64,000 nt of DNA, from assembly GCA_965368975.1 (NCBI GenBank), contig CBDUPA010000001.1, positions 704,001 to 768,000 on the forward strand, in the 5' to 3' direction. Numbering within the stretch: position 1 is the stretch's first letter; each line of letters begins with the position of its first letter. Below the pieces are notes generated by a model. That model ran no database searches and was not told the DNA's origin. It saw only the letters and a list, made by a program, of their open reading frames with translations. The DNA is from an uncultured bacterium. Lineage in GTDB: Bacteria; Acidobacteriota; Thermoanaerobaculia; Multivoradales; JAHZIX01. Of this stretch, positions 24,681 through 42,062 are shown in pieces. A program made the position numbers and the translations under genes.

Positions 24681-27137
24681 ATGTTTCCCGACTTCCGTCA
24701 GGCCTTCCGCAAGCTCCGCCGCTCGCCCTTCTTCACTAGCATTGCCGTCCTGACCCTGGCCCTCGGCATTGGCGCCAACGCGGCGGTATTCAGTGTCGTC
24801 TACGGCGTGCTCCTCAAGCCGCTGCCCTTCGACGAGCCCGAGCGCCTGGTTGGCATTTGGTACGAGGCGCCTGGCTTGGGCTTCGAGCAGGTGAACCAGT
24901 CGCCGGCAACGTACTTCACGCACCGGGACGATACCGAGATGCTGGAAGATCTCGGCTTGTGGGACAACAGCCAGGTTTCGGTCACTGGGCTCGAGAAGCC
25001 GATGGAGATCGAGGCGATGTTGGTGACGGACGGCACGCTGCCGATCTTGCGCGTGCGACCGGAGCTCGGGCGCTTGTTCAGTGCCGAAGACGATCTGCCG
25101 GACGCGCCCGAGACGGTGATGCTGAGCCACGGCTTTTGGAAACAGCAGTTCGGTGGTGACGCGTCGGTGGTGGGGCAGACGCTGCGGATCGACGGCCGTC
25201 CGCGCGAGATCATCGGGGTGTTGCCCGCGGGATTCCGGGTCATCGACTTCGACGCGGCGGTGTATCTACCGATGGGTTTCGAGAAAGCACAGGCGCGCAT
25301 GGGCAACTTCAGCTACCAGGGACTTGGGCGGCTGGTGCCAGGAGCGACGCTGGCACAGCTCGAAGCCGAGATGAACCGCTTGATCCCGGTGATGACGGAT
25401 CGCTATCCGGGCGGCATCACGCTGAGCATGCTGCAGGAGGCGCGCTTCGCGGCCTACCCGCGCTCGCTCAAGCAGGATGTGGTCGGCGATGTCGGGTCGG
25501 CGCTGTGGGTCCTGCTCGGCACGGTCGGATTGGTGTTGCTGATCGCCTGCGCCAACGTCGCCAACCTTTTCTTGGTGCGCGCTGATGGCCGACAGCTAGA
25601 AGTAGCGGTACGCACGGCGATGGGTGCCAGCCGAATGTCGGTGGTGCGCTCGTTCCTGGCCGAGAGCGTGCTGTTGGGCCTTCTCGGTGGTATTGCCGGT
25701 CTGGCGCTGGCCTTTGCCGGACTGCGCTTGCTGGTGGCTCTCGGACCGCGCAGCTTGCCGCGACTGCAGGAGATCTCGATCGACCCGACCGTGATCTTGT
25801 TCACGGCTGGTGTCTCGCTGCTGGCGGGTGTCCTCTTTGGCTTGGTCCCGGGGCTGCGTAGCAGTGCTCTGGGCGGGCTCGCAGTGACTCTCAAAGAGGG
25901 AGGATATCGCGGCTCGGAGGGTCGCCAGCGGCGCCGCGCCCGTCACGTGCTGGTGGTCAGCCAGGTGGCGTTGGCTCTGGTGTTGCTGGTCGGCTCCGGC
26001 CTCATGATCCGCAGCTTCCAAGCGCTGCAGCAGGTCGACCCCGGCTTCCGCGACCCGGCCGACGTGCTGACGCTGCGCGTGTCGCTGCCACGTGCCGAGG
26101 TCGAGACGGTGGAGCAGGTGATCCAGACCTTCCAACAGATGTACCAGAACCTGGCAGCGATTCCCGGCGTCAGCGCGCTGGGAATGAGTAGCTCGATCAC
26201 CATGGACGGTTGGGACAACAACGACGCGCTGTACGTGGAGGACGCGCCGACACCCGAGGGACAGTTACCGCCGATCCGGCGCGACAAGCGGGTAGCGGGC
26301 GACTACGTGGCGACCATGGGCAACCGCCTGTTGGCCGGGCGGGCGATCGACTGGAACGACTCGCTCCGGCGCAACAAGGTCGTGATGCTCACTGAGGATC
26401 TGGCCACCACCTACTGGGACTCTCCCGCCGAGGCGATCGGCAAGCGGGTGAGTAATGACTCCAGCGGTGACTGGTACGAGGTCGTCGGCGTGGTGGGTGA
26501 TATCCGCGACAACGGTGTGTCTCAGCCAACGGTGCCCACGGTCTACTGGCCGATGGTGGTGGTGGATCCGCGGGACGGCGAGGTCAACGCGCGACGCGCG
26601 ATGGCCTTCGCGCTGCGCCACCAGCGTCCCGACGAAGCGGGCCTGGTACGCGACGTCCAGGACGTCGTGTGGTCGATCAATCCCAATCTGCCGCTGGCCA
26701 ACCTACAGGGGCTCGACGAGATTCTGGGGCGCTCGATGGCACGCACCTCGTTCGTCCTTGTGATGCTGGCGATCGCCGCGGTGGTGGCATTGCTGCTCGG
26801 CAGCGTCGGCATCTATGGTGTCACTTCGTACTCGGTGACACAGCGTACCCGCGAGATCGGCGTCCGGTTGGCGTTGGGCGCGGGGCGCGGCGACGTCAGC
26901 GGCATGGTTCTGCGCCAAGCCGCGACATTGGCGGCGATCGGTGTCGGCGTGGGGCTGGCAGCTGCGTTCGGGCTGACGCGGCTGATGACGTCTCTGTTGC
27001 ACGGCGTCGAAGCGGTCGATCCGCCGACCTACGTGGCCGTCGCGCTGGCGTTGGTTCTGTTCGCGCTGCTGGCCAGCTGGCTACCGGCGCGGCGAGCGGC
27101 GCGCACGGATCCTATGGTCGCCCTTCGCTGGGAGTAG
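24681..27137 (+). CDS. ABC permease, ADOP type
   Basis: [68 protein letters not shown]. Confidence 0.93.
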
Positions 27138-29421
27138 GATCGCTGGGCCTCTGGGTGGTAGCTAGCAGTTCCTCGACTTCGAGAACGTCCTGGTCTTCGG
27201 GCGGCCGGTGCCGGACCAGGACGTTCCGACTCTCTTGTAAGAGGACGCGCGCGCCGTCGATGTCCCCTTGCTCCAGCAGCAGAGCGCCGAGATCCTTGCG
27301 CGCCAGCGCCGTGTCCAGGTGATCGTCGCCCAACTCCGCGCGGCGGATCTCTAGTGCATCAATGTAGTGACGCCCCGCGGCCTGGAGTTGACCCCGCAGG
27401 TGGTGCAGGCCTCCGAGGCTGCTGAGGACCGCTGCCGCCTTGCGGCTGCGTTCGCCATAGATGTCGCGACGGATCGCGAGGGCTTGCAGCAGCAGTGGCT
27501 CGGCGACGTCCAGCTTGCCCTGGTGGATGAGTACGGTGCCCAGGCTGCGCAGGCTGGTGGCGACGTTGGCGTCATGCTCGCCGAACTGTGCCAGACGCTG
27601 CGTCAGAACCTCGCGGTAGATCGTCTCGGCCTCGTCGAAAGCGCCGCGTTTGAGCAGGATAGCCGCCAGGTTGCTCCGTGGCTTGGCCAGATCCCGGGTC
27701 AGGCCCAGCCGCTGGCGCATGGAAATGGCCTCGCGGAAACGGAGCTCGGCCAGGTCGAGTCGGCCGGTCCAGTAGTCGAGGTAGGCCAGATTGTTGAGCG
27801 CCGAGGCCAGATCCGGCTGGTCGCGGTCGCTCAGGGCTCGGTACTGGGCCACGGAGCTTTCGAACAGCTCTCGGGCCTCGTCGTACGCGCCGAGTCGGGC
27901 GTAGACCTCGCCCAGGCGCAACTGCAGCTTGGCGCGGGCTTCCGGGTCTTCGAGCAACTGGCGTTCTAGCCGCAAGCGCCCCTTGTCGACCAGCTCGCGC
28001 ACCGTCGGTTCGCGCCCGTTCGGCTCCTCCGTGCCGGGGCGATCCGGGGAGGCGGCCTGGAACAAGCTGACCAGGAAGTCGGTGACGCCTTCGGCCCGCT
28101 GCCGCGCTCGTTCGGTGTTGTCCAGCTGACGATCGAGCGCCACGGTGAAGGCGCTGGCCAGCACCAGCGCCAACAGCAGGCCGGCAGCGGGAAGACGGTG
28201 GCGGCGCAGAAAGCGGCTGGCGACGTAGAGGGGGCCGCCGGCGCGCGCCTCGACCGGCCGTAGCCGCAGGTGGCGGCGAAGGTCCGCGGCCAGCTGCTCG
28301 ATCGTGGCGTAGCGTTGCGACGGGTTTTCCGCGAGCGCTTTCAGGACGATGGCGTCGACATCGCCTGCCAGGGCCCGGCGCAGACCACGCACGGAACCGC
28401 GGCGCGAATCCGCCACCACCTCCGGCCGCAGCTGGCGGGTGCTGGCGTCGGAGTAGGTGAAAGTGAGGTGCCGGCTGGTGGCTCGGCTGGGCGGCACGAT
28501 GGGTTGGATTCCTGGCTGCGCTGGAGGAGTGTCGACCGGTGTCGTCTCGCCATCGGCGAGGGCGGCATGGTGGGGCAGCCGGCCGGTGAGCAAAAGGTAG
28601 AGGATGACGCCCAAGGAGTAGATATCACTGGTTGTCCCGATGGGCTCGTGCCGCCGCTGCTCCGGACTGGCGTAGTGCAACGTCATGGCGCTTTGGTGCG
28701 GATCGCCAGTGGCATCCGTGGTGTCCGTGCGCAGCAACTTTGCGATGCCAAAGTCGAGCAGCTTGGGCGTTCCGTGCGCATCCACCAGGATGTTACTGGG
28801 CTTGAGGTCGCGATGCACGATCAGGTTCTGGTGCGCCAGTTGCAGCGCTGAGCACACGGGCAACAGCAGTTCCAGGCGCTGACGGACACTGAGCCGGTGC
28901 TGGTCGCAGTAGTGGTCCAGCCGCTCGCCTTCGACGTACTCCATGGCGAAGTAGGGCACACCGTCGGCGGTCGTTCCGCCGTCCAGCAGGCGCGCGATGT
29001 TGGGATGCTCGAGGCGGGCCAGGATCTGACGCTCGACGTGGAAGCGGCGCAGCAACGACTCGCTGGCGCCACCACGCTGGACGAGCTTGAGCGCTACTTG
29101 CTGTTCGAACTCTTCCTGGCGCTCGGCCAGGAAGACGATGCCCATGCCGCCGCGTCCCAGGTTCTTGACCAGCTGATACGGACCGACTCGCTGGCCGAGC
29201 TCGAAGTCTTCCAGTTCCGGAGTCGGACGCAAGCCCGCCAGGACCGGTTGCTCGATGAAGTCGTCGAGCTGATCCTCGTAGGCCAGGAAGGACTCGACCT
29301 CGCGCAGGAGATCCGGATCCCCACCACACAGGTCGGCCAGCCAGCTGCGGCGATCTGGGTACGCTGGATCCATGGTCTGCTCGAGGATCCTCTGAATGTG
29401 TTGCCAGCGCTCGGGGCTCAC
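27112..29421 (-). CDS. Membrane Ser/Thr kinase with C-terminal TPR domain
   Basis: AGGAG then GTG at 29421; [30 protein letters not shown]; one TM; ASALNNLA-type TPRs. Confidence 0.92.
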
Positions 29422-29503
29422 GGCTGCTCTCCTGATTCTCGTGGTTCTTCCAGAGAAGCGCAGAAGCGCCACCAACCAGACCACGTCGCCGCCCGCCCGA
29501 AGT

Positions 29504-30097
29504 TCACGGACCGTCCAGGGCGCGCAGCAACCACAGGCGGGCCGAGCGCCAGGCGCGCTTGACGGTCATCGCTGAGATGTCGAGTGTCGCCGCGGTTTCC
29601 TCGATGGTCAGGCCGCCGAAGTAGCGCAGCTCGACGATGCGAGCTTGCCGTGGATCGACCTTGGCCAGCCCTCGCAGTGCCGTGTCCAGGGCTACCAGGT
29701 CGATGTCGATTTGTCCCAAGGCCGACGTCCAGGCGCCGGACGTCGGCGAGTCGAGCTGTTCGTCGAAGGGTAGCGTCGGGACGCCGCCACCTTTCTTCAG
29801 TGCCTTGCGCCTACGTGCGTGATCCACCAACACCCTGCGCATGATCTCGGCCATGCCGGCGAAGAACTGGGCACGGCTTTCCCAGTGCACGGACTGGCGA
29901 CTGGCTACGCGTAGATAGACCTCGTTGACCAGCGCTGTCGGCTGCAGGGTGTGTCCCGGATTCTCTTTGGACAGATGGATACGCGCCAGCCGGCGCAGGT
30001 CATCGAAAACCAATGGGATCAGTCGCTCGAGGGCTTCCGGGTCGCCATCGCTCCAAGCGTCGAGAAGCGCCGTGACGTCCCACTGAGGTTCAGGCAT
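29504..30097 (-). CDS. ECF sigma factor, TIGR02999/kinase-associated type
   Basis: VTALLDAWSDGD, HTLQPTALVNEVYL, PRQARIVELRYFGGLTIEETA, VKRAWRSARLWL. Confidence 0.92.
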   Translation of the reverse strand: MPEPQWDVTALLDAWSDGDPEALERLIPLVFDDLRRLARIHLSKENPGHTLQPTALVNEVYLRVASRQSVHWESRAQFFAGMAEIMRRVLVDHARRRKALKKGGGVPTLPFDEQLDSPTSGAWTSALGQIDIDLVALDTALRGLAKVDPRQARIVELRYFGGLTIEETAATLDISAMTVKRAWRSARLWLLRALDGP

Positions 30098-30238
30098 GCA
30101 GGGATTCTAGCCGATGCCCAACCCTTCGGTGAGTGCCTAACCGTCGGGTTAGTGGATTCGGTGATCTGTGCGGGACCCAGGACAGTCGCGGAAGGGTAAG
30201 TATTTCTTGGGCCGGGTTTTATGGGTTCTCCGAAGAGT

Positions 30239-30254
30239 TGGCACACGGTCTGCA
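30239..30254 (+). promoter_or_regulatory. Sigma54 (-24/-12) promoter candidate
   Basis: TGGCACACGGTCTGCA: GG-N10-GC spacing with a TGGCAC -24 element and AT-rich DNA upstream; 130 nt before ATG 30384. Confidence 0.65.
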
Positions 30255-30383
30255 ATACCTCTCCAGTCAGACCACGAAGACCATCCACCGGTGGACCGGT
30301 CACCTTCATGTTCCCAGCAACGGCGAGTCCAGGACTCCCGTTCGCAGTGACAGCGAGCCCAAGGGCTCGCAAGGAGACCTGTC

Positions 30384-31442
30384 ATGTTTACATTCGCTCA
30401 GCAGTTCACTCTCTCATTACAACTTCCGAAGGGTGCTCGGTGGATCCGGTTGGTGTTGGCCGGCGCGCTACTCCTCGCGCCGGCGGTCAATGCTCAGCCT
30501 ACGTGCGACGCCTGGCCCGTGACGGTGGGTGAGACTGTGCGTCACGCCGGTGGCGGCGTCGGGGACAGCGCTTGCTTCCTTCTCGACGTGCCGCTGGAGA
30601 GCCTCTTGGCCGTCGATGCCTTGACGCCGGTCGACGGCGCCCGTGTGCGTCTGCACCTGCAGTCGGCTGCCGGGCACCGTCAGCTGCGGGCCAGCGGTGA
30701 CAGCCAGCTACAACTCGCGGCCGCGGGTCAGTACCGGCTGCGCGTCGAGGCCGAAGATCCCCGGAAGCCACTGCCCAGCTTCCGCTTGCTCGTCCGCGCT
30801 TTACCCTCGGTGTCTCCCGCTTCGCAGTTCATTCCGGCACCTTCCGGCGCTCACGGTGAGCTAGATACGGAACTCGAGATCGACCCGAATCTCTTGCTCT
30901 CGGGGTTGGACCTACCCAGCACGGGAACGGACGACGGGGAGCTGGACACCGAGCTGGAAATCGACCCCAACCTCGGGGAGTTGGACACCGAGCTGGAGAT
31001 CGACCCCAACCTGCTGCGCGTGGAGCTGACATCGACGCTGACATCCCTGCTGACGCGCCTGTGTGGCCAAGCCGAACTCGACGATCACGGTGACGACGTG
31101 CTGTGTGCCACGCCGCTGACGGACGGCGTCGAGGCGCACGGCGAGATCGCCAATGCGTACAGCGATGATCGCGATGTCTACCGCTTCCGAGTCGAGGAGC
31201 TGGCGACCGTAGCGTTGCAGGTGGCGGGGCAGGCGGAGTTCTGTGCTGACTTGGTCGACGCGGCCGGTCAGCACCTGGACGCGCGGTGGAGTCGGGACGC
31301 GGAGCGGCTGCGCGGCGTCGTCACGCTGGTTGCCGGTAGCTATGAGCTGCGTGTCGAGGGGTGCGGCGGGACGGGGGGGAACTATCGTGTTTCGCTAGAA
31401 GACCAAGAGACTCTTGGCGGCTCTGCCGTACCGGCTTTCTGA
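30384..31442 (+). CDS. Secreted protein with PPC-like beta domains flanking three GELDTELEIDPNL repeats
   Basis: AAGGAG then ATG; signal peptide ending AVNA; DDHGD..CATPL...GEI....DRDVYRF PPC-like domain. Confidence 0.78.
   Translation: MFTFAQQFTLSLQLPKGARWIRLVLAGALLLAPAVNAQPTCDAWPVTVGETVRHAGGGVGDSACFLLDVPLESLLAVDALTPVDGARVRLHLQSAAGHRQLRASGDSQLQLAAAGQYRLRVEAEDPRKPLPSFRLLVRALPSVSPASQFIPAPSGAHGELDTELEIDPNLLLSGLDLPSTGTDDGELDTELEIDPNLGELDTELEIDPNLLRVELTSTLTSLLTRLCGQAELDDHGDDVLCATPLTDGVEAHGEIANAYSDDRDVYRFRVEELATVALQVAGQAEFCADLVDAAGQHLDARWSRDAERLRGVVTLVAGSYELRVEGCGGTGGNYRVSLEDQETLGGSAVPAF
30855..31013 (+). repeat. Three 39-nt coding repeats (30855-30893, 30936-30974, 30975-31013) encoding an identical 13-mer
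   Basis: Direct reading: 9 synonymous and 0 non-synonymous differences between copies 1 and 2; 3 synonymous differences between copies 2 and 3. Confidence 0.95.
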
Positions 31443-31536: not shown

Positions 31537-33819
31537 TCAGAAGACGAGGATGGAGCGCAGTTTCGGATTTGCTGCCCGCAAGAAGGTGTAACCCACGCCC
31601 GCCGAGCCGAGCATCAAGCCGGGTACGGCGAAGCGCGGGGAGACCCCGGAGGGCCACTGGTTGTCTCCGGCGTACCGCTCGGCCAGGCAACGCAGTGCCC
31701 CCTCGGCCAGATGGCGGTAGCGAAGTTCACCGAGAACCTCCGCAGCCACCAATAGCGTTTCGACCAGGCCGCAGAGTCCATGGCACAGGGTCGTGTCCAG
31801 GTTGGGGCGTCTCAGCCGTGCGCGCAGCGTCTCGGCGGCCGTGGTAACTCCGGCACGGGCCGCAGGCAGATAGTACTCGGCCCCTTCGGGGTTGAGCTGC
31901 AAGGCGCGGAGCCGTGCCAGCGCGATTCCCGGTGCACCGTGGCACCAGGCAACCCTGTACCGAGGTGGAGTGGACTCCCTATTGGCTTCCGGGGAGGGTA
32001 CTCCTGGGCTGCGCAAGTCGGGCCAGTTGCCGACAGCGGCACTGAACTGTCGATCTTCGTAGGCGAAAGCTCCCCGCGCTCCTTCGAGGAAGCGTATCTC
32101 ACCGGTTTCGCGGTAGAGGTGCAGCAGGGCGAGCCCGACACCGGCATTGCCGTGGGAAAGCCCGAGCTGTGCTGGTCCGTCCTCGTCGTGAACGGCTGCA
32201 TAGCGGCCAGGCCAGATCCAGCACCCGTCTGCGGTCTCCGCACTCTCGCACAGCTGATCGCCCAGGGCGAGCGCAGCGCGCCGCAGGCGCTTGAAACCAG
32301 TGGCGTTATAGAGCTCCAGGAGCATTGGAATCGTGCCGCTGTCTCCGCTGATGAAGTCCACTGGTCGGTCTGCTTCTGGTGCGATGGCCTCTTCGAGGCT
32401 AAAAGCATCCAAGTGCTGATCGACCTGTGCAGTGAGGTTGTCGTCCCCGAGTCGGTTTGCACAGTGCCGAGTTGCCCAGAGATGTCCGGCGAGCCCGCCA
32501 AACGGACTCAGATCCTGAGCGCCTGGCTCGGCTCGTTCTGCCTGCCAGAGCGTCTGTTGGAGCAGGCCTAGCAAAGTATCTCGAAGCCGTTCCTCGCGGG
32601 TCGCCAGGAAGAGTTCCGCAAGGAAGAGCGCAACGCCGGAAGTGCCATCGTGCATTTCGGCCGGAAGTGTGCAGACCGCGGCATATCCTCCCCAACCATC
32701 GAGCTTCGAGGGAGAGCAACGGCTGAGCCAATTGCAGCGTCCTTGATACCAGTTGGCTTCTTGGCAAAGGTCGAGACCAATGCCGAGGGCACACTGAGAG
32801 AGGCTTGCTGGAGAGGGCTTTCTGTGGGGTTCGTGTCTACGAGATGCGCGGCGGATTCCTGGTAAGGGGTAGCAAGCCTGAGATCGTGGCGCCCGGTACG
32901 GCTTTGCCGGGTCCAGGCCGGCAGTGCGGAAAGCGGTATCAACGGTTTCTTCCTTGGGCTGGCCAGTTGTGAAGGCCTCTACGAGAGCTGAGGCGATCAA
33001 CTCGCATCGGTGTTCGCCGAAGCTCTCACCGCCGAGTGGCCCTTCGGCGACAGCCAGTCCGGGGGCCAGGGGCAAGGTGAAGCAGGGAGTTGCTTCATGA
33101 AGGCCATGTTCCACAGCCCGATAAAGTTCAGCGATAGCAAGAGCCACCGTGGCCCAACAGCCGGACTGCAGGTACAGAACGCCGGCATCGGCGCGTCCAT
33201 AAGCCGAGGGATCATCGGGTACCTTCGCCTTGAAGCTAATGCCGAGCGGGTCGAGTGTCTGGCAGAGCTGCTCTAGCCAGGTCGTGGCGCAGTCGGGATT
33301 CAGGTTCCAGTACAGGCGAAGTAGCCAGGGTGATTCTGAACTCGGTGAATCGGTGGTACCCAGAATGGAGTAGAAACCTGGGAGCCTGTTTGGGGCATCG
33401 CCTGGGATTCGAACCGAGATGGCGTCTCCTGGCTTCAGAGTTTCCTCGACATGACGGACATCGCTCAAAGGGCTGTGGAAGCGAATACCACCACGTTCAA
33501 CGATGCACCGCGCATCCGGGAGGATTTCTCTCAGTCTCCATCCGCTCTGCCAGCAGAACCTTCCTTCCTCGACCCGGAGAAGGTGCTGCCGAAAGAGTGC
33601 GGCCGAGTTGATCTCAGCAAGCGGGGCCATGACCGGAAGCTGCCGTGACCGCATGTAGACATGTTGGTAGAGGTGCCGAGTCAGAGATTCGACCAAGGAA
33701 CTGGACGGGGAACGGTGCAAGGTCTCGCCACACAGTCGGTAGCTGTTGCTGTCGATCAGGTCGATGGTTTCGACCGTGGTGCGAAGGTCGGTCGACCACT
33801 GTCGAGGGCCGAGAAACAT
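31537..33819 (-). CDS. HopA1-like lyase (LanY-like) fused to LanC-like lanthionine cyclase
   Basis: N-half: LRLYWNL, Y.RADAGVLY, PLAPGLAVAE.P..GESFGEHRC (HopA1-like). C-half: DG.SGVALFL, D.ISG..G, GLSHG..G, WPDLR, WCHGAPG, LCHG..G, GLMLG.AGVG (LanC with Zn ligands). Confidence 0.85.
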   Translation of the reverse strand: MFLGPRQWSTDLRTTVETIDLIDSNSYRLCGETLHRSPSSSLVESLTRHLYQHVYMRSRQLPVMAPLAEINSAALFRQHLLRVEEGRFCWQSGWRLREILPDARCIVERGGIRFHSPLSDVRHVEETLKPGDAISVRIPGDAPNRLPGFYSILGTTDSPSSESPWLLRLYWNLNPDCATTWLEQLCQTLDPLGISFKAKVPDDPSAYGRADAGVLYLQSGCWATVALAIAELYRAVEHGLHEATPCFTLPLAPGLAVAEGPLGGESFGEHRCELIASALVEAFTTGQPKEETVDTAFRTAGLDPAKPYRAPRSQACYPLPGIRRASRRHEPHRKPSPASLSQCALGIGLDLCQEANWYQGRCNWLSRCSPSKLDGWGGYAAVCTLPAEMHDGTSGVALFLAELFLATREERLRDTLLGLLQQTLWQAERAEPGAQDLSPFGGLAGHLWATRHCANRLGDDNLTAQVDQHLDAFSLEEAIAPEADRPVDFISGDSGTIPMLLELYNATGFKRLRRAALALGDQLCESAETADGCWIWPGRYAAVHDEDGPAQLGLSHGNAGVGLALLHLYRETGEIRFLEGARGAFAYEDRQFSAAVGNWPDLRSPGVPSPEANRESTPPRYRVAWCHGAPGIALARLRALQLNPEGAEYYLPAARAGVTTAAETLRARLRRPNLDTTLCHGLCGLVETLLVAAEVLGELRYRHLAEGALRCLAERYAGDNQWPSGVSPRFAVPGLMLGSAGVGYTFLRAANPKLRSILVF

Positions 33820-33823: not shown

Positions 33824-34954
33824 TCAGGCAGGGGGCGAGTCCTCCGCTGAGACAGGGGATTCCAGATCGTAGAGGTGGTGCGCCGCGTCGTCGGGATCCT
33901 TTAAGATATTCACTCCTAGCTGCGAGAGGAGAACCATGAGCGTGGTGTAGCCGGAGGCCCTGCGGCCGACCTCCTGTGCTGTTCCGAGTAACTGCACGCC
34001 AGAAAAGGCGACGGACCGCTGCAGGAGGTTTGCCGTTGCCTCCGTGGGTAACAGGGCGGCTTCCAGGTAGGCGTGCCAGAAGCCTTGGATCCATGGACGC
34101 ACCATTCTGAGTGGCATGCGAGCCGCCTGAGAGCGCTCAGCCGACTCGATGTCGGCTTCCATGGGCATGCTGGTGACCCAGAACCGCAAGAACTCGCGAA
34201 GGACGGCTCCGAGATCCCAAGCTGGATCCCCGAAGCGGGCCATCTCCCAATCCACGAGTCGCAGGGGCTGTTCGGTGTCGGCTATCCACAAGACGTTGTC
34301 GGATCGAATATCGCCGTGGATCAGCGTTTCATCCTGCCATCTGGATCGCCAGATCTCGAGAGGCTCCAGTAGCTCCACTTCTCCTTGAATGATGCGCAAC
34401 AAGTCCAACTGAGCTGGTCTCAGCTCGTTGCGGCGGGCCAGGTTTACTTTGGGAAACCAGAAGAGTCCGGGCGCACCCATGGGCAGCTTGGGTACGAAGC
34501 CGCCGAGGTCGAGCCTGCGGCGCCTCAGACCCCGGTGGACTCGGCCCAGGCTGCGGCCCAGGGCCTTGGCGATGGAGAGGCCTTGGGCAGACTCTTCGGT
34601 GCACGCCTGCAACCACGGTCGTGCGTTCCTGATCAGCTCTGCTGCCAGAACAGGATCAGGCGAGTCAGTCTTCTTTATCGCTGGTAACAGGGGCAGGAGG
34701 TCTCGGTGACCTGGAACTGCACCAAGGCATTGGTGCAGCCTTGCCTCGTACGCCAAAGGCGGGCCTTGCTCCGGTCTGCCAGAAGGTTTCTTGATCAGGT
34801 AGCCAGGTTGATTGGGAAACTCGACTCTCAAGCTTTGATTGAGCCGGAGAATCCAGGTGACACCCAGGCCATCGATCAGGTCTTTTTCGCGCAAGAAAGG
34901 ACACAACTCGAGGAGTTCTTTGCCCAGTTCTGACGGAGCTTCGAGGGGCTTCAC
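33824..34954 (-). CDS. Aminoglycoside-phosphotransferase-fold kinase (LanK-like)
   Basis: LIHGDIRSDNVL and LVDWEMARFGDPAWDLG; 4 nt from the HopA1-LanC gene. Confidence 0.85.
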   Translation of the reverse strand: MKPLEAPSELGKELLELCPFLREKDLIDGLGVTWILRLNQSLRVEFPNQPGYLIKKPSGRPEQGPPLAYEARLHQCLGAVPGHRDLLPLLPAIKKTDSPDPVLAAELIRNARPWLQACTEESAQGLSIAKALGRSLGRVHRGLRRRRLDLGGFVPKLPMGAPGLFWFPKVNLARRNELRPAQLDLLRIIQGEVELLEPLEIWRSRWQDETLIHGDIRSDNVLWIADTEQPLRLVDWEMARFGDPAWDLGAVLREFLRFWVTSMPMEADIESAERSQAARMPLRMVRPWIQGFWHAYLEAALLPTEATANLLQRSVAFSGVQLLGTAQEVGRRASGYTTLMVLLSQLGVNILKDPDDAAHHLYDLESPVSAEDSPPA

Positions 34955-34975: not shown

Positions 34976-35179
34976 TCAGGTGGCCGGCGAAGACGGCGAG
35001 CACCACTGAGGGTGACTATTTTGAAGCGTGCGTAAGGGGGGAAACCACACACAGTCTGGTGACGGCGAAGATCTGTCGTCTTCGGACTCGACTTCGGCTT
35101 GGGCCAAATAGGTGTCCGTAAGGTGACCCTTCAAGAAGTGGCTCGCGCGAGGGGACTGGCGGTGCTGTTTTTTGCGCAT
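34976..35179 (-). CDS. Putative RiPP (lanthipeptide) precursor peptide, 67 aa
   Basis: AGGAGA-acgt-ATG; fills the gap between the receptor kinase (9 nt) and the LanK-like gene (21 nt); C-terminal 31 aa contain 7 Ser, 2 Thr and 2 Cys. Confidence 0.65.
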   Translation of the reverse strand: MRKKQHRQSPRASHFLKGHLTDTYLAQAEVESEDDRSSPSPDCVWFPPLRTLQNSHPQWCSPSSPAT

Positions 35180-35188: not shown

Positions 35189-38100
35189 TCATAGGTTTCT
35201 GCATCCAACTGCTGGTGATCCCGCCGAGCGTACATATGTGGCGAGCTCATGATCGTCTACCAGAGTTTGGAACTGTTCGTCGGACCATTCGGCGTCGAGA
35301 AGCCGATGCACAATGGGTAACGCTTCTTCAATTCGCCCCAGCTCCAGCAGGGACTGAGCTCGAGTATCGAGAATCCGGCACTTCTCGGCTGGCAGTGCTT
35401 CCGCTAACTCGAGTGCTTTCTGCCAGCTGTTGCGAGCCAGATCCTCTTCGTCGCGTTGCTTCTGAATGCGACCAAGTTCGAGGTAGGTTCGAGCTGTCGC
35501 TTCCGTGTTTTGTGGATTCTCAGGCATATCCTGGAGAAGACGCAGGACCGTTCTTCCTTCTAGGAGAGCCAAATCCCATTTGCTCGCACTCTTATAGTGA
35601 TCCTGGAGAGCCGCATGCGACACAACTAGCCATAGTTGCAGGTGGGTGTAGGTCGGATGTTCATCTGCCACTTGTTTGAAGGTTTCACTGGCGCGGTGCA
35701 GGTAGGCCAGAGCTATCTCGGGCTGGTCCTCAAGTGCCGTGGCAAGGCCAACCCAGGTCTGTGCCAACGCTACAGGCCAAGTGTCCCGCAATGGGTCGAG
35801 TACGATCAGTTGTTGATAGAGGCGCTCGGCCTCTCGTAGTCTGTGGAGCGCGCTCGGCTTGTCAGCTGTAGCCAGATAGAGGTTTCCGAGATCGAGTTCG
35901 GTTATGGCCTGTGCTCTGAGCCAGGTGAGCTGTGTTGGATTGCCTTCCATCAGATTTCCGAGCCTTGTTCGTAACCTTTCAAGAGCACGTATTCCTTGTT
36001 GGAAATCGGACCGAGCCTGGTGGAGTGTTCCGAATAGTTGCAAGGTATCAACAAGCAGAGTTTCGGTTCGCCAGTTCGAAGTTGGCTCGAGTACAAGGTC
36101 TTCTGCAATCTGGAGCGCCTCCTCAGCATACTCCAAGCCCTGCTCGAAGTCTCCGATTCGGCAGTACAAGTGAGCGGTCTCCTGAAGATTCTGGCCTAGC
36201 AACAGGCGCCACTCGGTCGGCGCATCCTCCCTTCCTGCCAGTTGCCGCGCCAGCAGGCGAGAAGAGGCGAGACTGTCGAGTCCTTCCTGGGTTTTTTCCT
36301 GTCGAATCAGAACGGACGCAAGTCTAAGTCTTGCCCGGCTCAGGGCTCCTTGGACTCGGGCTTGGCTCGGATCTTTCTCATGTAGGGCCGCTAGGATGCG
36401 GACGGCTTTCTCATGTGCAGCTTGAGCCTGGTTGACATCCAGCCGCTCTTCTAAGACCCATCCGATGTTGAGATACGTGAGGGCGCGGCGAAGACTGTCC
36501 GCGGAGCTGAAGTCCGCCTGGGTTTGCGAGAAATGCTCCAAAGCTCTTTGAGCCACTTGATCCAGCAGGTCCAGGCGCCCCAGAGGTTCCAGATTTTCCT
36601 GCAGGTCGAAGAGCATGAAGTCGATCAACCCTTCCGCCTGCCGCCGCTGCTCTCCTTCGCGCTCCTTTGCCTGCATGGCCTGGAGCGCGAGGACAACGAC
36701 CACCACCAGGAAGATCGACGCCGTGACGGCAACTGCCTTGAGTCGTCGTCGGCGCCGGACCGCTTGCTGCGCAGCCCGCCTCGCTGCCCTTTCCGTTGCC
36801 CGTTCCGCCCGCCGTTGTTCCAGAGTGTACAGCTTCTCGGCAGCAATCAAGCCACTCGCCGGCCGCCGCTCCGGCCGGCCATCGACGAGCGTGCCAATGT
36901 CCTCGACCAGCAACTCCTCCTCGACATCCCGCTCCCAGCCGGAGGCCAAGGGCCGCTCGAAATCAGCCGCGACCAGTTGATAGAGCAGCACACCGAACGA
37001 GTAGAGATCCGCCTGGATCGTGGCCGGTCGGCCGGCAAGTAGCTCCGGTGCCATGTAGCCGAAGGTTCCCGCTCCGGAGTCCGTGGTCGGGGTTGCCGTC
37101 GCCGTGAAGCCGAGGGCAGTGAAATCTTGCCCTGCCAGCTGTTCTCGATCCGTCAGCAGTCCGATGCCAAAGTCGGTCAGGCGCGCGCGCGGGCGGCCAT
37201 CGCGGTCGCTGGTGATCAAGACGTTCTCGGGCTTGATGTCCTTGTGCAGCACGCCGACCGAGTGCGCCGCCGCCAGCGCCTCGGCGACTTCGGCGGCCAG
37301 TTCCAGGCGCACCTCGAGCGGTACTTGACTCAGGCCTCCTTGCTGCTCGGCCCAGCGCACCAGGCTGCCGCCCTCGGTGTACTCGGCCTCGACGAAGAAG
37401 GGAGCGCTGTCGAAATTCCAGTCCAGGATGCGCGCGATGTCGTCGCGCTGGCCCAGGGCTTCCTTGAGCAGGCGGAAGAGCGTCACCTCGCGCTTGAGCG
37501 CGCGCAGGCGCTCGGCCTCGAAGCAGAACTTGAAGACGCGCGCCTCGCCGGCTTTGTGGCGGGCCAGCCAGACCTCGCCGAAGCCACCTTCGCCGACGCG
37601 CTCTTCCAGCTTCCAGTGCGGTCGACCGGGAATGGGTTGACCACCGGCGGGGCGCCAGCCGAGCATGCGTTCTTCGCTGACGGACAGGGCCCGCCGGGCA
37701 TCGGTGCGTTCGGAGGGAGGTCGTAGGGCCGACAGCCCGTCGAGACCGACCTCGAACACGTCCAGAGGGGTTTCTCGGCCCCTGAGCAGGTAGCTGCCGT
37801 GCGCCAGCCAGCGAAGACTGCTCTTGCCGCCGTCTTCCGTGCCGTCGCGGGAGTCCGGATGGGCACGGCGCGCGAGGTCGAAGGCGGTACGGCTGAGCAG
37901 GATCTGGTTGCCAGCGGCGAGGTGTAAGAGCTGGCAGGCGGTTCCCTTCTCGCTACCTTCGACTTCCACCTCCGGTGCACCTTGCTGCCTCTCGGCAGAG
38001 GAGGGACGGTGCACCAGAACTTCCGCCGTGTGGATGGCGGCGCGGATCGGCAACTCGACCGCGAAGGTGGAGGCCACTTCGAGGATGGCCCGCTGGGTGG

Positions 38101-39361
38101 ACAAGGCGCAGGCGACAGCATCGGCGGGGCGTTCGAAGACGGCGAGCAGGCTGTCGGCTTTCTCGGCCACCGAGCCGCCGTACAGGGACACCAGGTCGCG
38201 CAGGCGCCGGTCGTACCGGCTCAGGAGGCTGGCCGCGGTGCCGTCGCCGTGGCGCTGGGGCAGGGCGGCGCGGTGGAGCAGTTCGACGTGGAGCAAGGTG
38301 CGAACGGCTGGAGTGCCGGTAGGAGGGGAGGGGAACCATTCGCCGGTCGCCTGCTCGCTCGTGGCGGGGTTGCCGTCGAGTTCGCCGTGGCTGGCGGAAG
38401 CCCGCCGCGTACCTGACGGCCGTGGCAGGGCAGAGGTGTCGGGCTGGAGGAGCACGCCAGGGCCAGTGCCGGCATCCGTGCCAGGGCCAGGGCCGCTTCG
38501 CAGTCGTTCCAGCGAAGCGGCCACCAGGCTGGCGTTGGCGGGGCGCTGGTGCGGGTCCTTGGCCAGCAGGGCCTCGACTAGCTGCAGCAGGTCGGCTGGC
38601 AGCCGCGGCTGCAATTGAGCTAGGGAAGTCGGAGGTTCTGCAGTGATGCGGCACAGGGTGTCGAGCAAGTTCGTCCCCTGGAAGGGGGGGCGACCGCTGA
38701 GCATCTGGTAGAGCAGGCTGCCGAGGGCGAAGAGGTCCGATCGGTGGTCGAGCGGACGGCCGCTGGCCTGCTCGGGAGACATTGCATGGACGGTGCCGAC
38801 CAGGGCTCCCGCTTCGGTCAGGGTCTGGGAGCCGATAGGGTCCTGGAGGAGCGGGTCTTGGGACGACGTGTCCCTGCGCCAGAGGCAGTGCACCAGGCCG
38901 AAGTCGAGGATCTTGGCATGTCCGGCGGCGGTCAGGCGGACGTTCTCGGGCTTCAGGTCTCGGTGGACGAAGCCGCGAGCGTGCGCCTCGGCCAGACCTT
39001 GGGCGATCTCCGTACCGAGACGTAACGTCTGGTCGAGGTCGAGGGGGCCGTCTGTCAGCAGATCGGCCAGGCTCGGCCCCTCGACGTACTCCATGACCAG
39101 GCAATCGCCGTCGTCGGTGGAAACGATGTCGAAGATCTGGACGATCGCCGGATGGTTGAGGCCCGCCACGGCCCGGGCTTCGCGCCGGAAGCGCTCACGT
39201 CGCCGCGGATCGACTTCCAGGTCTTCGCGGATGCGCTTGATGGCGACTTTCCGGTGCAGGCGCTCATCGCGCGCCAGGAAGACCTCTCCCATCCCTCCGA
39301 CGCCGAGCCTGGACTCGACGCGGTAGGAACCAAAGCTGAGTTCGACTGATGCTGTGGGCAT
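35189..39361 (-). CDS. Receptor kinase: Ser/Thr kinase, degenerate class III cyclase-like domain, second kinase, TM, TPR-like domain
   Basis: Kinase 1: GVGGMGEV/HRDLKPEN/DFG. Cyclase-like: GD..A.LL..YDR..RDL...GG...D..L.VFERP.DAV..AL...IR.AIH..EV. Kinase 2: GEGGFGEV/HKDIKPEN/DFG/GYMAPE. TM: VAVTASIFLVVVVVLAL. Confidence 0.88.
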   Translation of the reverse strand: MPTASVELSFGSYRVESRLGVGGMGEVFLARDERLHRKVAIKRIREDLEVDPRRRERFRREARAVAGLNHPAIVQIFDIVSTDDGDCLVMEYVEGPSLADLLTDGPLDLDQTLRLGTEIAQGLAEAHARGFVHRDLKPENVRLTAAGHAKILDFGLVHCLWRRDTSSQDPLLQDPIGSQTLTEAGALVGTVHAMSPEQASGRPLDHRSDLFALGSLLYQMLSGRPPFQGTNLLDTLCRITAEPPTSLAQLQPRLPADLLQLVEALLAKDPHQRPANASLVAASLERLRSGPGPGTDAGTGPGVLLQPDTSALPRPSGTRRASASHGELDGNPATSEQATGEWFPSPPTGTPAVRTLLHVELLHRAALPQRHGDGTAASLLSRYDRRLRDLVSLYGGSVAEKADSLLAVFERPADAVACALSTQRAILEVASTFAVELPIRAAIHTAEVLVHRPSSAERQQGAPEVEVEGSEKGTACQLLHLAAGNQILLSRTAFDLARRAHPDSRDGTEDGGKSSLRWLAHGSYLLRGRETPLDVFEVGLDGLSALRPPSERTDARRALSVSEERMLGWRPAGGQPIPGRPHWKLEERVGEGGFGEVWLARHKAGEARVFKFCFEAERLRALKREVTLFRLLKEALGQRDDIARILDWNFDSAPFFVEAEYTEGGSLVRWAEQQGGLSQVPLEVRLELAAEVAEALAAAHSVGVLHKDIKPENVLITSDRDGRPRARLTDFGIGLLTDREQLAGQDFTALGFTATATPTTDSGAGTFGYMAPELLAGRPATIQADLYSFGVLLYQLVAADFERPLASGWERDVEEELLVEDIGTLVDGRPERRPASGLIAAEKLYTLEQRRAERATERAARRAAQQAVRRRRRLKAVAVTASIFLVVVVVLALQAMQAKEREGEQRRQAEGLIDFMLFDLQENLEPLGRLDLLDQVAQRALEHFSQTQADFSSADSLRRALTYLNIGWVLEERLDVNQAQAAHEKAVRILAALHEKDPSQARVQGALSRARLRLASVLIRQEKTQEGLDSLASSRLLARQLAGREDAPTEWRLLLGQNLQETAHLYCRIGDFEQGLEYAEEALQIAEDLVLEPTSNWRTETLLVDTLQLFGTLHQARSDFQQGIRALERLRTRLGNLMEGNPTQLTWLRAQAITELDLGNLYLATADKPSALHRLREAERLYQQLIVLDPLRDTWPVALAQTWVGLATALEDQPEIALAYLHRASETFKQVADEHPTYTHLQLWLVVSHAALQDHYKSASKWDLALLEGRTVLRLLQDMPENPQNTEATARTYLELGRIQKQRDEEDLARNSWQKALELAEALPAEKCRILDTRAQSLLELGRIEEALPIVHRLLDAEWSDEQFQTLVDDHELATYVRSAGSPAVGCRNL

Positions 39362-39391
39362 AGGTCTCCAGGTAAGGGGACTGAGAGAAGG

Positions 39392-40048
39392 TCAACTCGT
39401 GACTTGCTTGTTTCTTTCCGGCTTGCCTTTCTCCAGAGTGTGCAGCAGCCAGAGACGCGCGCTGCGCCACTCTCGCTTGACAGTGCGCGGTGAGATCTCG
39501 AGGGTATGTGCGGTCTCTTCGACGGTGAGACCAGCAAAGTAGCGCAGTTCGACGATACGGCTCTGCCGAGGAGCCAGTTGTGTCAGCTCGTGCAGGGCTC
39601 GGTCGAGATCGAGCAAGTCGACGGTGCGGTGCCGATGGCCCCCTGCGCTCCAAGCCTCATCGATCGGAATGATGGTGCAGTCGCCGCCATGCCGCATCGC
39701 TTGGTTGCGGCGGGCGTGGTTGATCAGGAGCCGCCGCATGGTGGTGCCCATGTAGGCGAAGAATTGCGCTCGGCACTGCCAGCTCAGCTCGCGCCCCCCC
39801 GTCAAGCGCAGATACGCCTCGTTCACCAGGGCGGTCGGCTGTAGCGTGTGGCCCCGACGCTGACGCTGTAGGTGGAAGGCGGCGAGTTGACGCAGGTCGT
39901 TGAGCACCAGTGGAAATACGTGCGCCAAGGCAGAAGCGTCCCCCCGAGCCCAGGCGTCGAGAAGCTGGGTGACCTCTCCGGACGGTGGCTCGGTGAAGGC
40001 GCGGCCTTCTTCGTTCGGCGGAGACTCCTGAGGAATGCTACCTACCAT
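39392..40048 (-). CDS. ECF sigma factor, TIGR02999/kinase-associated type
   Basis: VTQLLDAWARGD, HTLQPTALVNEAYL, PRQSRIVELRYFAGLTVEETA, VKREWRSARLWL. Confidence 0.92.
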   Translation of the reverse strand: MVGSIPQESPPNEEGRAFTEPPSGEVTQLLDAWARGDASALAHVFPLVLNDLRQLAAFHLQRQRRGHTLQPTALVNEAYLRLTGGRELSWQCRAQFFAYMGTTMRRLLINHARRNQAMRHGGDCTIIPIDEAWSAGGHRHRTVDLLDLDRALHELTQLAPRQSRIVELRYFAGLTVEETAHTLEISPRTVKREWRSARLWLLHTLEKGKPERNKQVTS

Positions 40049-40154
40049 TGTCCTCTCCTATCGTCCCTTGAGTAGATGTCGCTGCCGGGTGAAGCGCAGT
40101 AGGGCAGAGGACTGGACCATTGTCTTCCCTAGCGGCAAGGAAACTGAGGCGTAG

Positions 40155-42062
40155 CTACTCGTCGAGCTGATCCTTGATACCGAGCCTGCGGATCATGCGG
40201 TGCAGCGAATTGACGTGGATGCCCAGCCGGTCGGCGGTGACGCCGTAGTCGCCGCCGGCTGCGCGGTAGGCGTCGAGGATCAGCTTGCGCTTGAACTCGA
40301 CCAGGGCGGCCTGGAACTCGGACGGCACCTCGGCCGTGCTCTCGCGCACTTCTTCCGGCAGATCCTCGGGTTCGACGACGTCGGTTTCGCCGAGCACCAA
40401 GGCGCGCTCGATGACGTTGCCCAGCTCGCGCACGTTGCCGGGCCAGTCGTAGGCTTGCAGGCAGCGCTCTGCGGCCTGCGAGACGGTGACACCGAGGCGG
40501 CCGAGGCGACGGCCCTGGACGGCCAGGAAGTGACTGCACAGGAGCGGGATGTCGTCGCGACGCTGGCGCAGGGGTGGTGGTTCCAGGGTGATCACCTTGA
40601 GGCGGTAGTAGAGGTCCTCGCGGAACTCGCCGGCACGGATGGCTGCTTCCAGGTCGCGGTTGGTGGCGGCGACGATGCGCACGTCGACGTCGATCGGCCG
40701 CGTCCCACCGACGCGCTCGAATTGCCGCTCCTGCACCACGCGCAGCAGCTTGGCCTGGATCGGCGGTGGAATCTCACCCACCTCGTCGAGAAAGAGAGTG
40801 CCGCCGCCGGCGGTCTCGAACTTGCCGGGCTTGCGCGCCACGGCGCCGGTGAAGGCACCTTTCTCGTGCCCGAAGAGTTCGCTTTCGAGCAGCGTCTCAG
40901 ACAGGGTGGCGCAGTTCACCGCCACGAAAGGACCGGCGGAGCGCGCGCTCGAACGGTGAATGGCCTGGGCGGTGAGTTCCTTGCCGGTCCCGCTCTCGCC
41001 GCGAAGCAACACGGTGGTGTCGGAGCGCGCGACCTTGCCGATGAGGTCGAGCAGCCGCCGCATGGCGGCGCTTGCGCCGATCAAGTCGTGCTGCAGCTGC
41101 TGCGCTTGCAGGCGCCGGTTCTCGGCTTCCAGCCGCTGTAGCTGCAGGCTGTTGGCGAGCGCCAGGGAGGCCACGGCTGACAAACCCTCGAGCAGGTCGA
41201 GGTGGTGAGCGTCGAAGGCACCGGCGACGTGAGTCTCGCCGGTCAGCACGGCCAGCACGGACTCGCCCGCGGGATCGAGGAGGGGAGCCGCGACCCGTGT
41301 GCCGAGGGTGGAGTCGGTGAGTTGCGTGCAGCGCTCGTGCACGGCTTTTTCGACGATTGTCTCCACGAGGGTCCGATTTGCCGCGATTCCATCGGCGGCG
41401 ATTCCATCCCGGCTGGCTGGGCCGGGCTCCACCTGCCGCGAACGCTGCGCCAGCACTTGCGGCTGCTCGTCACCAGGCTGCCACCAGAGCACCTGGGTGC
41501 GCTGTGCGGGTAGGGCCTCGAGCAGTGCGGCGACCACGCGCTCGCCGCACTGCTCCGGCAGCAGTGGCCCCTGCAGTTCGGTGCTCCAGCGCAGCAGGGT
41601 CTGCAGGTCGCGGGCGATCCGCGCCTGGACGGGGAGTTCGGCGTCCAGGTGAGCCGGATCGAGCAGCAAGATCTCGGTGGCTCTGCGCGCGAAGGTACTG
41701 CGGCCGGTGGTCCTTCTGCTGCCGGCAAGTCTTGCGCTCTCGCGTGGCTCGATGCCGCGCGTGTCGGTATCGTTGAGCAGGAAGAGCAAGACACTGCCGC
41801 CGAGAGTCAGCAGGTCGCTGTGTACCAGCTGGTGTTGTCGCACCGGCCGGCCATTGACGAAGACCCCGTGCCGGCTTCCGAGGTCCTGGAGGGTATAGCC
41901 GCCATCGCTGCCCGGCAGCAACTCGCAGTGTCGGCGCGAGATCTCCAGGCTCTCCAGGCGCAAATCACAGTCAGCACTGCGACCGATCGTGAACGGCTTC
42001 GTGAGCAGCGGAAAGGTCTGACCCGCGGCGGGGCCACTGATAGCTACCAGGCGTGGTTTCAA
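40155..42062 (-). CDS. FHA-GAF sigma54-dependent enhancer-binding protein
   Basis: FHA: IGR...SRRH...DLGSRHG.FVNG. AAA+: [39 protein letters not shown]-terminal HTH. Confidence 0.92.

Follow-up and report, generated by a model that had tools for sequence, protein, structure and literature searches.

A conserved kinase–sigma factor module around a secreted repeat protein in Acidobacteriota, with lanthipeptide-type genes as probable local cargo

The stretch of DNA analysed here (64,000 nt, hereafter the window; positions 704,001 to 768,000 of contig CBDUPA010000001.1, assembly GCA_965368975.1) belongs to an uncultured member of the Acidobacteriota with a genome of 7.13 Mb in 59 contigs, and carries genes for transmembrane Hanks kinases, extracytoplasmic function (ECF) sigma factors, a sigma54 activator with an FHA domain, and a secreted repeat protein, here called REP. 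Comparative analysis points to a conserved kinase–sigma module of which REP would be the main target. According to this reading, the FHA activator and a phosphothreonine-bearing kinase would act on a sigma54 promoter in front of REP, the kinase STK1 and the sigma factor ECF1 would form a second branch, and the nearby genes for a peptide made on the ribosome and modified after translation (RiPP) would be cargo. Taken as a whole package, this is regarded as moderately probable. The genome of the window is designated G000 below, with L-, G- and C-numbers standing for related loci, related genomes and contigs, respectively.

Genes were assigned from a listing of open reading frames (ORFs) together with Pfam scans of the window proteins. 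The core of the module consists of STK1 (27112–29484, minus strand), a Hanks kinase with one transmembrane helix and a tetratricopeptide repeat (TPR) part of the TPR_12/TPR_10 type according to Pfam, ECF1 (29504–30097, minus strand), the divergently oriented REP gene (30384–31442, plus strand; assigned by ORF, AlphaFold2 and Foldseek), and the gene of the FHA-(GAF-like)-sigma54 AAA+ activator (40155–42062, minus strand; Pfam). A double Hanks kinase with one transmembrane helix and a TPR-like tail, STK2 (35189–39361, minus strand; Pfam and synteny), and the second ECF sigma factor, ECF2 (39392–40048, minus strand; Sigma70_ECF), lie between REP and the activator. An earlier sequence-only reading of this region had proposed an integrated peptide-signalling island with two ECF/kinase pairs, an FHA-GAF activator and two peptide outputs, and every gene that it named was found where it had been placed.

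In order to follow these genes in relatives, REP was searched against genomes of its order, first 61 and later 300, 16 loci around its relatives were fetched, and the window proteins were mapped onto them by tblastn. Full-length relatives of REP were found mostly in one other family (f6) of the order. Among the 16 loci, which had been fetched by REP similarity, 15 carry an STK1-like kinase, and in 13 an ECF gene adjoins the REP-like gene. An orthologue of the FHA activator is present in seven (L022, L055, L056, L057, L058, L059 and L062), with an identity of 52–59%, or 72% over a partial match at the edge of L055. A search with the N-terminal half of the activator matched 72 of the 300 genomes at E-values up to 1 × 10−20 and added L072 and L073, and a search for further loci with a four-row alignment returned three loci, all among those already known. 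The core module, with STK1–ECF1 divergent from REP and the FHA activator nearby, was thereby recognized, the window included, at ten loci of nine Acidobacteriota genomes from two families. The linkage of the components in related genomes, on which the sequence-only reading had itself been staked, thus holds for the first kinase, ECF1, REP and the activator. The second pair, which it had also counted in the island, is present in the window, but an STK2 orthologue stands beside the activator in only six, and ECF2 is found in only four, of the ten module loci; on the evidence of synteny, both are optional parts.

A sigma54-type promoter, TGGCACacggtCTGCA (TGGCAC-N5-CTGCA, that is, GG-N10-GC), is located at 30239–30254 on the plus strand, with its last base 130 nt before the REP start codon. 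It is the only match in the window; genome-wide, however, the loose sigma54 pattern is matched 72 times, and the weight of this promoter rests on its conservation, not on its count. A scan of the 450 nt upstream of the REP-like genes showed TGGC-N2-N5-nTGC in all eight activator-linked loci, in comparison with two of the nine others. The variant of L072 and L073, TGGCA[CT]cgatcCCGCA, retains GG-N10-GC, and this spacing precedes REP in 10 out of 10 module loci, where the promoter suggested by the sequence-only reading is thus kept throughout. The genome also encodes RpoN (a PF04552 match on contig C3). The REP promoter is predicted to be of the sigma54-dependent type. A promoter of this kind (TGGCAT-N5-GTGCT), together with the conserved leader repeat described below, was also observed before the REP-like gene of L066 (G069:C74, 9946–10824, minus strand), a locus whose genome also contains a complete module at another place (L058).

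The palindrome CTAACCgtcgGGTTAG (30137–30152) lies approximately 100 bp upstream of the sigma54 promoter. The motif (C)TAACC-N4-GGTTA(G) occurs in all ten module loci, two or three times in L062, L072 and L073, and in none of the nine REP-like loci that lack the activator. CTAACC-N4-GGTTAG is found once in the whole G000 genome (0.23 copies expected) and once in each of five other genomes of 7.7–10.6 Mb, always in the ECF1–REP spacer; since a backwards control pattern gave 0–2 copies per genome, it is the position of the palindrome, and not its count, that is non-random. The recognition helix H[VIL]NSLHRM (HVNSLHRM in the window) is common to the activator orthologues of the module and differs in more distant paralogues. 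Because of its conserved position and this shared helix, the palindrome is read as the site of the activator, i.e., as a candidate upstream activator site. A different upstream palindrome, ACCGATCGGT, was observed in L060, L061, L064 and L067, which have a REP-like gene with an ECF–kinase pair and lack the FHA activator, and three of these loci also carry a TGGCCA(A/G)C box; these elements may represent an ECF-dependent promoter type of paralogous triads.

Downstream of the sigma54 promoter, the leader contains an inverted repeat, GACC..TCCACCGGTGGA..GGTC (30279–30301, plus strand). Its pattern, GACC(TG)..GCCGGC..(CA)GGTC, is common to the module loci and L066, and in nine loci where this was measured its centre falls 42–53 nt past the start of the promoter; it could act as an RNA hairpin or as a DNA operator. 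A second hairpin, GCGAGCCC-AA-GGGCTCGC (30353–30376, plus strand), is located directly 5′ of the Shine–Dalgarno sequence AAGGAG, and the orthologous leaders have an equivalent hairpin and Shine–Dalgarno sequence. An Rfam search of the ECF1–REP spacer and leader returned no family, only a chance-level snoRNA match, and when 11 leader segments were aligned with MAFFT, an alignment in which indels misalign the arms, RNAalifold gave three pairs and no covariation. Folds of single sequences do recover the leader hairpin. A −10-like box, TAGAAT (30104–30109, minus strand), is found 6 nt before the ECF1 start codon, and TAnnnT-type boxes (TACAAT, TAAGAT, TAAACT) were seen by eye 6–8 nt before the ECF1 start in nine loci, including L072. 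A box of the TAGAAT/TACAAT type also precedes the activator gene (at about 42072–42077), so that in both genes the box lies 6–10 nt from the start codon, with equivalents in L022, L055–L059, L062, L072 and L073. This arrangement suggests possible leaderless, housekeeping-type transcripts for ECF1–STK1 and for the activator gene.

The activator has an FHA domain (E-value, 6 × 10−19), a Sigma54_activat domain (PF00158; E-value, 1.7 × 10−72) and an AAA lid, and carries a Walker A motif, the GAFTGA loop (HEKGAFTGA) and a C-terminal helix-turn-helix. Pfam thus confirms the FHA and sigma54 parts of the FHA-GAF activator proposed by the sequence-only reading, but the GAF match is found only below its cut-off.

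STK1 comprises an N-terminal extension, a kinase domain, a transmembrane helix (residues 430–451) and the C-terminal TPR_12/TPR_10 part; judging by the starts of its orthologues, its true start is probably near 29421. The order in STK2 is kinase 1, a middle region with no Pfam match, kinase 2, a transmembrane helix (872–899) and a C-terminal TPR-like domain; a cyclase-homology domain was considered for the middle region, for which Pfam gave nothing. In both kinases, Arg-rich segments are found ahead of the single transmembrane helix and the TPR part follows it, an order from which the positive-inside rule predicts extracytoplasmic TPR domains, as the sequence-only reading had assumed. The TPR domain of STK1 would accordingly face the periplasm, the same compartment as REP.

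Both sigma factors score far above the cut-offs of their families: with PF07638 (cut-off, 21.1 bits), ECF1 obtained 185.4 bits (E-value, 1 × 10−54) and ECF2 obtained 176.5 bits, and with TIGR02999 (cut-off, 126), 193.9 bits were obtained for each. Each ECF gene is followed within 20–31 bp by a kinase gene, so that both have a kinase neighbour instead of an anti-sigma factor; ECF1 and STK1 are taken to form an operon. Both proteins contain GHTLQPTALVNE in region 2.2, as placed by eye, where there is no acidic DAED motif and a conserved Thr is found instead (LQPTA versus the consensus QTTA). ECF1 and ECF2 are classed as ECF43-type, and their activation by Thr phosphorylation is predicted by analogy with known pairs. 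The phospho-acceptor Thr of ECF43 region 2.2 is conserved in 88% of ECF43 members (PMC13147305). The background that the sequence-only reading had given on kinase-associated ECFs and the Thr of region 2.2 likewise agrees with the two relevant papers (PMC13147305, PMC8999054).

Features of this kind are frequent in the genome, which has 31 PF07638 matches, 20 of them strong, and 21 ECF loci of this type by tblastn, 19 of which have a kinase-domain match within 2 kb. Kinase domains were counted at about 83 loci and sigma54 activators at about two dozen, and close pairs of ECF genes (<10 kb apart) are over-represented in general (5 observed versus 0.59 expected), with 10 of the 21 ECF genes on contig C1. 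The proximity of two ECF/kinase pairs is nothing special in a genome where 19 of 21 ECF genes adjoin a kinase, and the clustering is not meaningful on its own. The TLQPT motif reported for both ECFs is indeed present, but [TS]xQP[TS] is carried by 12 of the 21 ECF paralogues and close variants by most of the others; because the motif is generic to ECF43-type sigmas, it singles out neither ECF1 nor ECF2.

REP has a signal-peptide-like N-terminus, a first beta-sandwich domain (residues 43–141), a linker, and a second beta-sandwich domain (240–340). AlphaFold2, run on a 16-row family alignment, predicted both domains with confidence and residues 147–216 of the linker as disordered, with a mean predicted local distance difference test value of 71. 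The top Foldseek match was 5iku, the tandem collagen-binding domains of ColG (E-value, 5 × 10−12), and single collagen-binding domains matched with TM values of 0.71–0.85 at a root-mean-square deviation of about 2–3 Å. A REP family profile found the same ColG chains among PDB sequences (E-value, 5.5 × 10−6). PF04151 (PPC) was matched by the L058 orthologue (27.2 against a cut-off of 25.9) and by the L056 orthologue just below the cut-off, with no match for the window REP, and an atlas search with the orthologue P0061 returned PPC-domain clusters only. The models and profiles thus assign a PPC/collagen-binding-domain fold to REP. The family has invariant Asp/Asn columns (D233, D234, N257, D261, D262 and D264), which would fit a calcium site of collagen-binding-type domains. 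In an exhaustive profile search, the C-terminal domain type of REP was found in 16,102 proteins at E-values up to 0.001, and among the 150 best matches, dozens of proteins of 290–480 aa align end to end with REP.

The linker of the window REP contains three exact GELDTELEIDPNL units (nt 30855–30893, 30936–30974 and 30975–31013; these are all the copies present). Reading of 43 family proteins revealed 1–8 acidic units of the form E-x-E-x-[DE]-P-[DN] between the two domains, with the copies usually identical within a protein and different between proteins, and with a Lys or Arg often found a few residues before the repeat core. In the window, unit 1 departs from units 2 and 3 by synonymous changes in 9 of the 13 codons, and the encoded peptide is identical; as all copies were counted and remain identical despite the synonymous changes, each of these repeats appears to be under purifying selection for its exact sequence. 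Similar synonymous differences were found in L055, L056, L057 and L064, where the units were located by exact peptide match, so that zero non-synonymous change outside the window is given by construction. A search of PDB sequences with the repeat region alone gave no match. REP was also considered as a multi-core lanthipeptide precursor, a role rejected on the grounds that none of the nine other module loci has the enzymes and that the repeats lack Cys and often Ser/Thr.

For evidence on the relation between REP and the sensor of STK1, pairwise p-distances of the folded REP domains were compared with those of the adjoining kinase parts over 13 related loci. REP distances correlated with those of the TPR part (r = 0.74) and much less with those of the kinase domain (r = 0.38). 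In partial Mantel tests on the 13 loci, the correlation of REP with the TPR part given the kinase domain was 0.68 (p about 4 × 10−4), and that with the kinase domain given the TPR part was −0.02 (p = 0.53). These values suggest that REP and the TPR part of STK1 co-diverge, which is not evidence of contact. Prediction of a complex between STK1 TPR residues 455–790 (13 rows) and the REP linker 142–228 (16 rows) scored 0.31 against a mark of 0.32 and was counted neither way.

These elements can be ordered into a proposed mechanism. A Hanks kinase, STK2 where present and otherwise STK1, would autophosphorylate on Thr, and the FHA domain of the activator would read the phosphothreonine. The activator, bound at CTAACC-N4-GGTTAG, would then open the sigma54 promoter, and REP would be made and exported. 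In the periplasm, REP would contact STK1 at its TPR domain, the exact acidic repeats of REP being the probable point of contact, and STK1 would phosphorylate the conserved Thr of ECF1 (LQPTA), thereby switching ECF1 on. The gene set, promoter, candidate operator, topology and repeat conservation rest on sequence and synteny. The first two steps are modelled on the known role of FHA domains, and the last on EcfP/PknT and EcfK/PknS. The weakest link is the action of REP or its repeats on the TPR domain of STK1, for which co-divergence is the sole argument; it is put forward tentatively, the balance being against it. A more specific form of the idea is less likely again: REP-family proteins would be the ligands of the periplasmic TPR domains of ECF43-associated Hanks kinases through a species-specific acidic "word", E-x-E-x-[DE]-P-[DN], displayed or released at the preceding basic residue, with the phosphothreonine/FHA/sigma54 branch setting the ligand level and the ECF43 branch reading it, in a loop of self-recognition or autoinduction.

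The place of the RiPP genes is of a different kind. The fusion LanXC (760 aa; 31537–33819, minus strand; Pfam and NCBIfam) has a HopA1 domain (PF17914; residues 143–309; 132.2 bits, with the cut-off at 22.7) and a LanC domain of the LANC_like type (PF05147; 177.2 bits; residues 386–755) with the motifs GLSHG, WCHG and LCHG. The APH-family kinase (33824–34954, minus strand) matches PF01636 above the cut-off (50.9 bits) and retains HGD..N and DWE; with the LxmK equivalog NF038156, it obtained an E-value of 1 × 10−25 and 90.6 bits, far under the 315-bit cut-off. The enzymes therefore look intact as judged by their motifs and domain scores, and the kinase appears to be distantly similar to LxmK, the class V lanthipeptide kinase. 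The sequence-only reading had named no clear precursor, and the sole candidate is an ORF of 67 aa (34976–35179, minus strand), recognized by the ORF itself, a Shine–Dalgarno sequence (GAGGAG, 5 nt before the ATG) and a GC content at third codon positions of 0.66, like that of the enzymes; its C-terminal half is rich in Ser, Pro and Cys, with two Cys. No similar ORF was found beside the enzymes of relatives, and a leader profile of the relatives' precursors gave no match at E-values up to 10 among the six-frame ORFs of G000 (hmmsearch).

LanXC and the APH kinase had no tblastn match in any of the nine other module loci, which speaks against their inclusion in an integrated island. Of the two peptide outputs that had been proposed, REP is tied to the regulators by synteny, but the RiPP genes are seen in the G000 copy only. 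The GC content falls to 0.54–0.61 at 32.5–36.5 kb, in comparison with about 0.65–0.69 around. The activator, ECF2, STK2, the 67-aa ORF, the APH gene and LanXC follow each other on one strand, separated by 106, 30, 9, 21 and 4 bp, and because of this shared strand and the short gaps, co-transcription of the RiPP genes with the regulators is plausible, although specific to G000. From these data, the RiPP genes are probably co-transcribed, lineage-specific cargo at the 3′ end of the activator–ECF2–STK2 string and not a conserved output. In G076 (L055:5759–7762, plus strand), a 667-aa glycosyltransferase–sulfotransferase fusion occupies the slot between STK2 and ECF2, next to the one that the RiPP genes fill in G000, between REP and STK2; variable cargo thus seems to be accepted in this part of the module.

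APH–HopA1–LanC sets were found elsewhere in the order, with lyase and cyclase split in G057, G053, G005, G003 and G020 and fused in G025. Four trios of relatives are preceded by giant precursor-like ORFs of 313–559 aa (L024:13363–16203, minus strand; L025:12992–14023, minus strand; L026:6597–7877, plus strand; L030:2732–3670, minus strand). They share a conserved N-terminal domain of about 110 aa with no Pfam or NCBIfam match, followed by repetitive Cys/Thr/Pro-rich tails with up to 43 Cys and with CPxTQxCP runs or five IPTLPVTKCxTIPIVCC copies, and could be lanthipeptide substrates of a multi-ring or multi-core kind not yet described. G000 itself has another APH/HopA1/LanC-like locus, which is more divergent and, to judge from its partial tblastn and Pfam matches, apparently fragmentary (C11:154130–156028).

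Three rival explanations were weighed against the conserved module. The neighbourhood could have arisen by chance from abundant ECF and kinase paralogues, one activator and a laterally acquired RiPP cluster, with no functional integration. The genome certainly offers material for this, given its 21 ECF genes, some 83 kinase-domain loci, about two dozen activator loci, the general clustering of ECF genes (5 close pairs versus 0.59 expected, 10 of 21 genes on C1) and the 72 matches of the loose sigma54 pattern. However, the same gene set, promoter, palindrome and leader recur in ten loci of nine genomes from two families, and as synteny contradicts it for the core of the module, this explanation is very improbable. 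In the full model of the sequence-only reading, the REP repeats and/or the lanthipeptide would be released signals sensed by the TPRs, and phosphorylation would pass on to both the ECFs and the sigma54 activator, which would drive the two outputs, for autoinduction or kin recognition. Several features are consistent with it, namely the repeat copies that are exact within a protein and differ between species, their position in a disordered linker, the basic residue often found before each unit, which is compatible with proteolytic release, the co-divergence of REP with the TPR domain, and the RiPP genes, which come after those of the regulators on one strand at spacings of 4–30 bp. Against this, the RiPP genes are absent from all nine other module loci, no protease or exporter is conserved in the module loci, and repeats with no Cys, and often with no Ser/Thr, would not be lanthipeptide cores. 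In this complete form, the model is held to be improbable, though well above mere coincidence.

REP may alternatively be a structural or adhesive protein of the envelope or matrix whose acidic repeats bind calcium or mineral, with the kinases sensing other cues and REP being merely one output in stress or biofilm formation that does not feed back. Such a role fits the resemblance to the collagen-binding domains of ColG/ColH in fold and profile, the invariant Asp/Asn columns, if they are presumed to form a calcium site, and the wide occurrence of the C-terminal domain type in large surface proteins, many of the 16,102 proteins having up to 25 copies. Sigma54 activators, moreover, commonly control envelope and exopolymer genes. 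On the other hand, a dedicated single-copy candidate operator with its own activator exceeds the usual provision for a plain structural gene, exact repeat identity under synonymous divergence implies a stronger constraint than a spacer or an acidic linker needs, and REP-like genes stand beside ECF–kinase pairs in 15 of the 16 relatives' loci and co-diverge with the sensor domain. This structural explanation is considered unlikely, if somewhat less so than the full signalling model.

Several observations weigh against the conserved module as it is proposed here. With STK2 absent from four and ECF2 from six of the ten module loci, the wiring varies between genomes. Within the window's own family, the module was seen in G000 only; five other genomes gave weak or partial REP matches, and in one of these (82% complete) an activator orthologue is truncated where the contig ends. 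In L066, the sigma54-type promoter and the leader are present, whereas the palindrome is absent and no activator lies within 10 kb; the activator might act on it in trans, or this copy might be regulated differently. The distance of the palindrome to the sigma54 promoter (69–184 bp) and to the ECF1 start is variable, and the palindrome could be the operator of another regulator or of the ECF1 promoter. No ECF1-dependent promoter was recognized, and a search for an ECF-type promoter upstream of the activator gene gave −10-like TAnnnT boxes only. Co-divergence was measured on a few related loci and with p-distances, which saturate, and a fast rate could be common to two periplasmic proteins with no contact between them. 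The GC dip, finally, extends over the 3′ part of STK2, which blurs the limits of the insertion.

The core genes adjoin a gene for a MacB-type permease (24681–27137, plus strand) on one side, and on the other genes for a Kelch/PQQ propeller protein (42151–44394, minus strand) and a TonB-dependent receptor (44399–46873, minus strand), all assigned by the ORF listing and Pfam. A Kelch/PQQ propeller gene was observed near the activator in four of the ten module loci (that of the window, L059:6325–7578, L072:3688–4842 and L073:3390–4604), and the genome has many propeller paralogues. A third, divergent ECF gene (PF07638; E-value, 1 × 10−14) directly follows the gene of a 1038-aa kinase with a polytopic membrane N-terminus and a GAF-like segment (15708–19375, minus strand), and a fourth kinase–TPR gene (61768–63987, minus strand) is cut by the window end, the region being dense in such pairs.

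The components of the module have known counterparts. The pairs EcfK/PknS of Xanthomonas citri and EcfP/PknT of Vibrio parahaemolyticus resemble those of the window in having no anti-sigma factor and an adjacent transmembrane kinase, and in the conserved Thr that replaces acidic residues of region 2.2 (consensus QTTA; LQPTA here) (PMC13147305, PMC8999054). PknS has the same architecture as STK1, i.e., an N-terminal extension, a kinase domain, a transmembrane helix and periplasmic TPRs, and the paper on it leaves open which signals its TPR domain reads (PMC13147305). The known pairs control a type VI secretion system or polymyxin resistance, whereas the window pair is in synteny with REP, a sigma54 promoter and an FHA activator.

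Sigma54 enhancer-binding proteins with FHA domains were reportedly described in Myxococcus xanthus by Jelsbak, Givskov and Kaiser in 2005. In those activators, FHA stands where an NtrC-type protein has its receiver domain, which implies that Ser/Thr kinases control them, and, to our knowledge, their kinase partners and targets are mostly unassigned. The activator of the window differs in having a neighbouring (double) kinase in six of the ten loci, a single-copy candidate operator and one obvious target. TPR domains are known to bind short acidic motifs, as in the case of Hop with EEVD and kinesin light chain with W-acidic motifs. STK1 shares the TPR_12/TPR_10 type of sensor with kinesin light chain, and short acidic motifs recur in the disordered region of REP, which is an analogy only, the setting of STK1 being bacterial and periplasmic, unlike that of Hop and kinesin. 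The s3a–s3b part of ColG (5iku) resembles REP in its two beta-sandwich domains of the same fold and an acidic segment before a domain. Unlike ColG, REP has no peptidase domain, and a long disordered linker with exact acidic repeats lies between its domains; the repeat presumably resembles the calcium-binding E-x-E-P-N-D linker of ColG, although the repeat found no match in the PDB search. With regard to the RiPP enzymes, dehydration in class V lanthipeptides is described as relying on the APH-type kinase LanK and the HopA1-type lyase LanY (PMC9486802), and a variant is reported to use the LanC cyclase SmoC (PMC12328550). The window enzymes share with these an APH kinase, a HopA1 lyase and a LanC-fold cyclase with zinc-ligand motifs, and differ from class V in that one protein combines lyase and cyclase, the kinase falls well short of the cut-off for LxmK, and no canonical precursor is found beside the enzymes; their host is a member of the Acidobacteriota and not an actinomycete.

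No description of the module was found in the open-access full-text literature searched. Its parts all come from known families, and it is their conserved combination, the single-target candidate operator, and the repeat protein tied to a kinase sensor that appear undescribed in that literature. ECF43/Hanks-kinase pairs are widespread, and for the periplasmic sensor of such a pair the module offers a genetically linked candidate partner, REP, together with a regulatory handle in which a single FHA activator, a single-copy candidate operator and a single sigma54 promoter are combined. The conserved logic of the circuit should be read as excluding the RiPP genes. The module makes testable which signals TPR kinases perceive, which kinases feed FHA-type sigma54 activators, and how ECF and sigma54 branches are joined; and if the proposed recognition of REP-family proteins by the kinase sensors were true, the paralogous ECF–kinase–REP triads would be insulated parallel channels.

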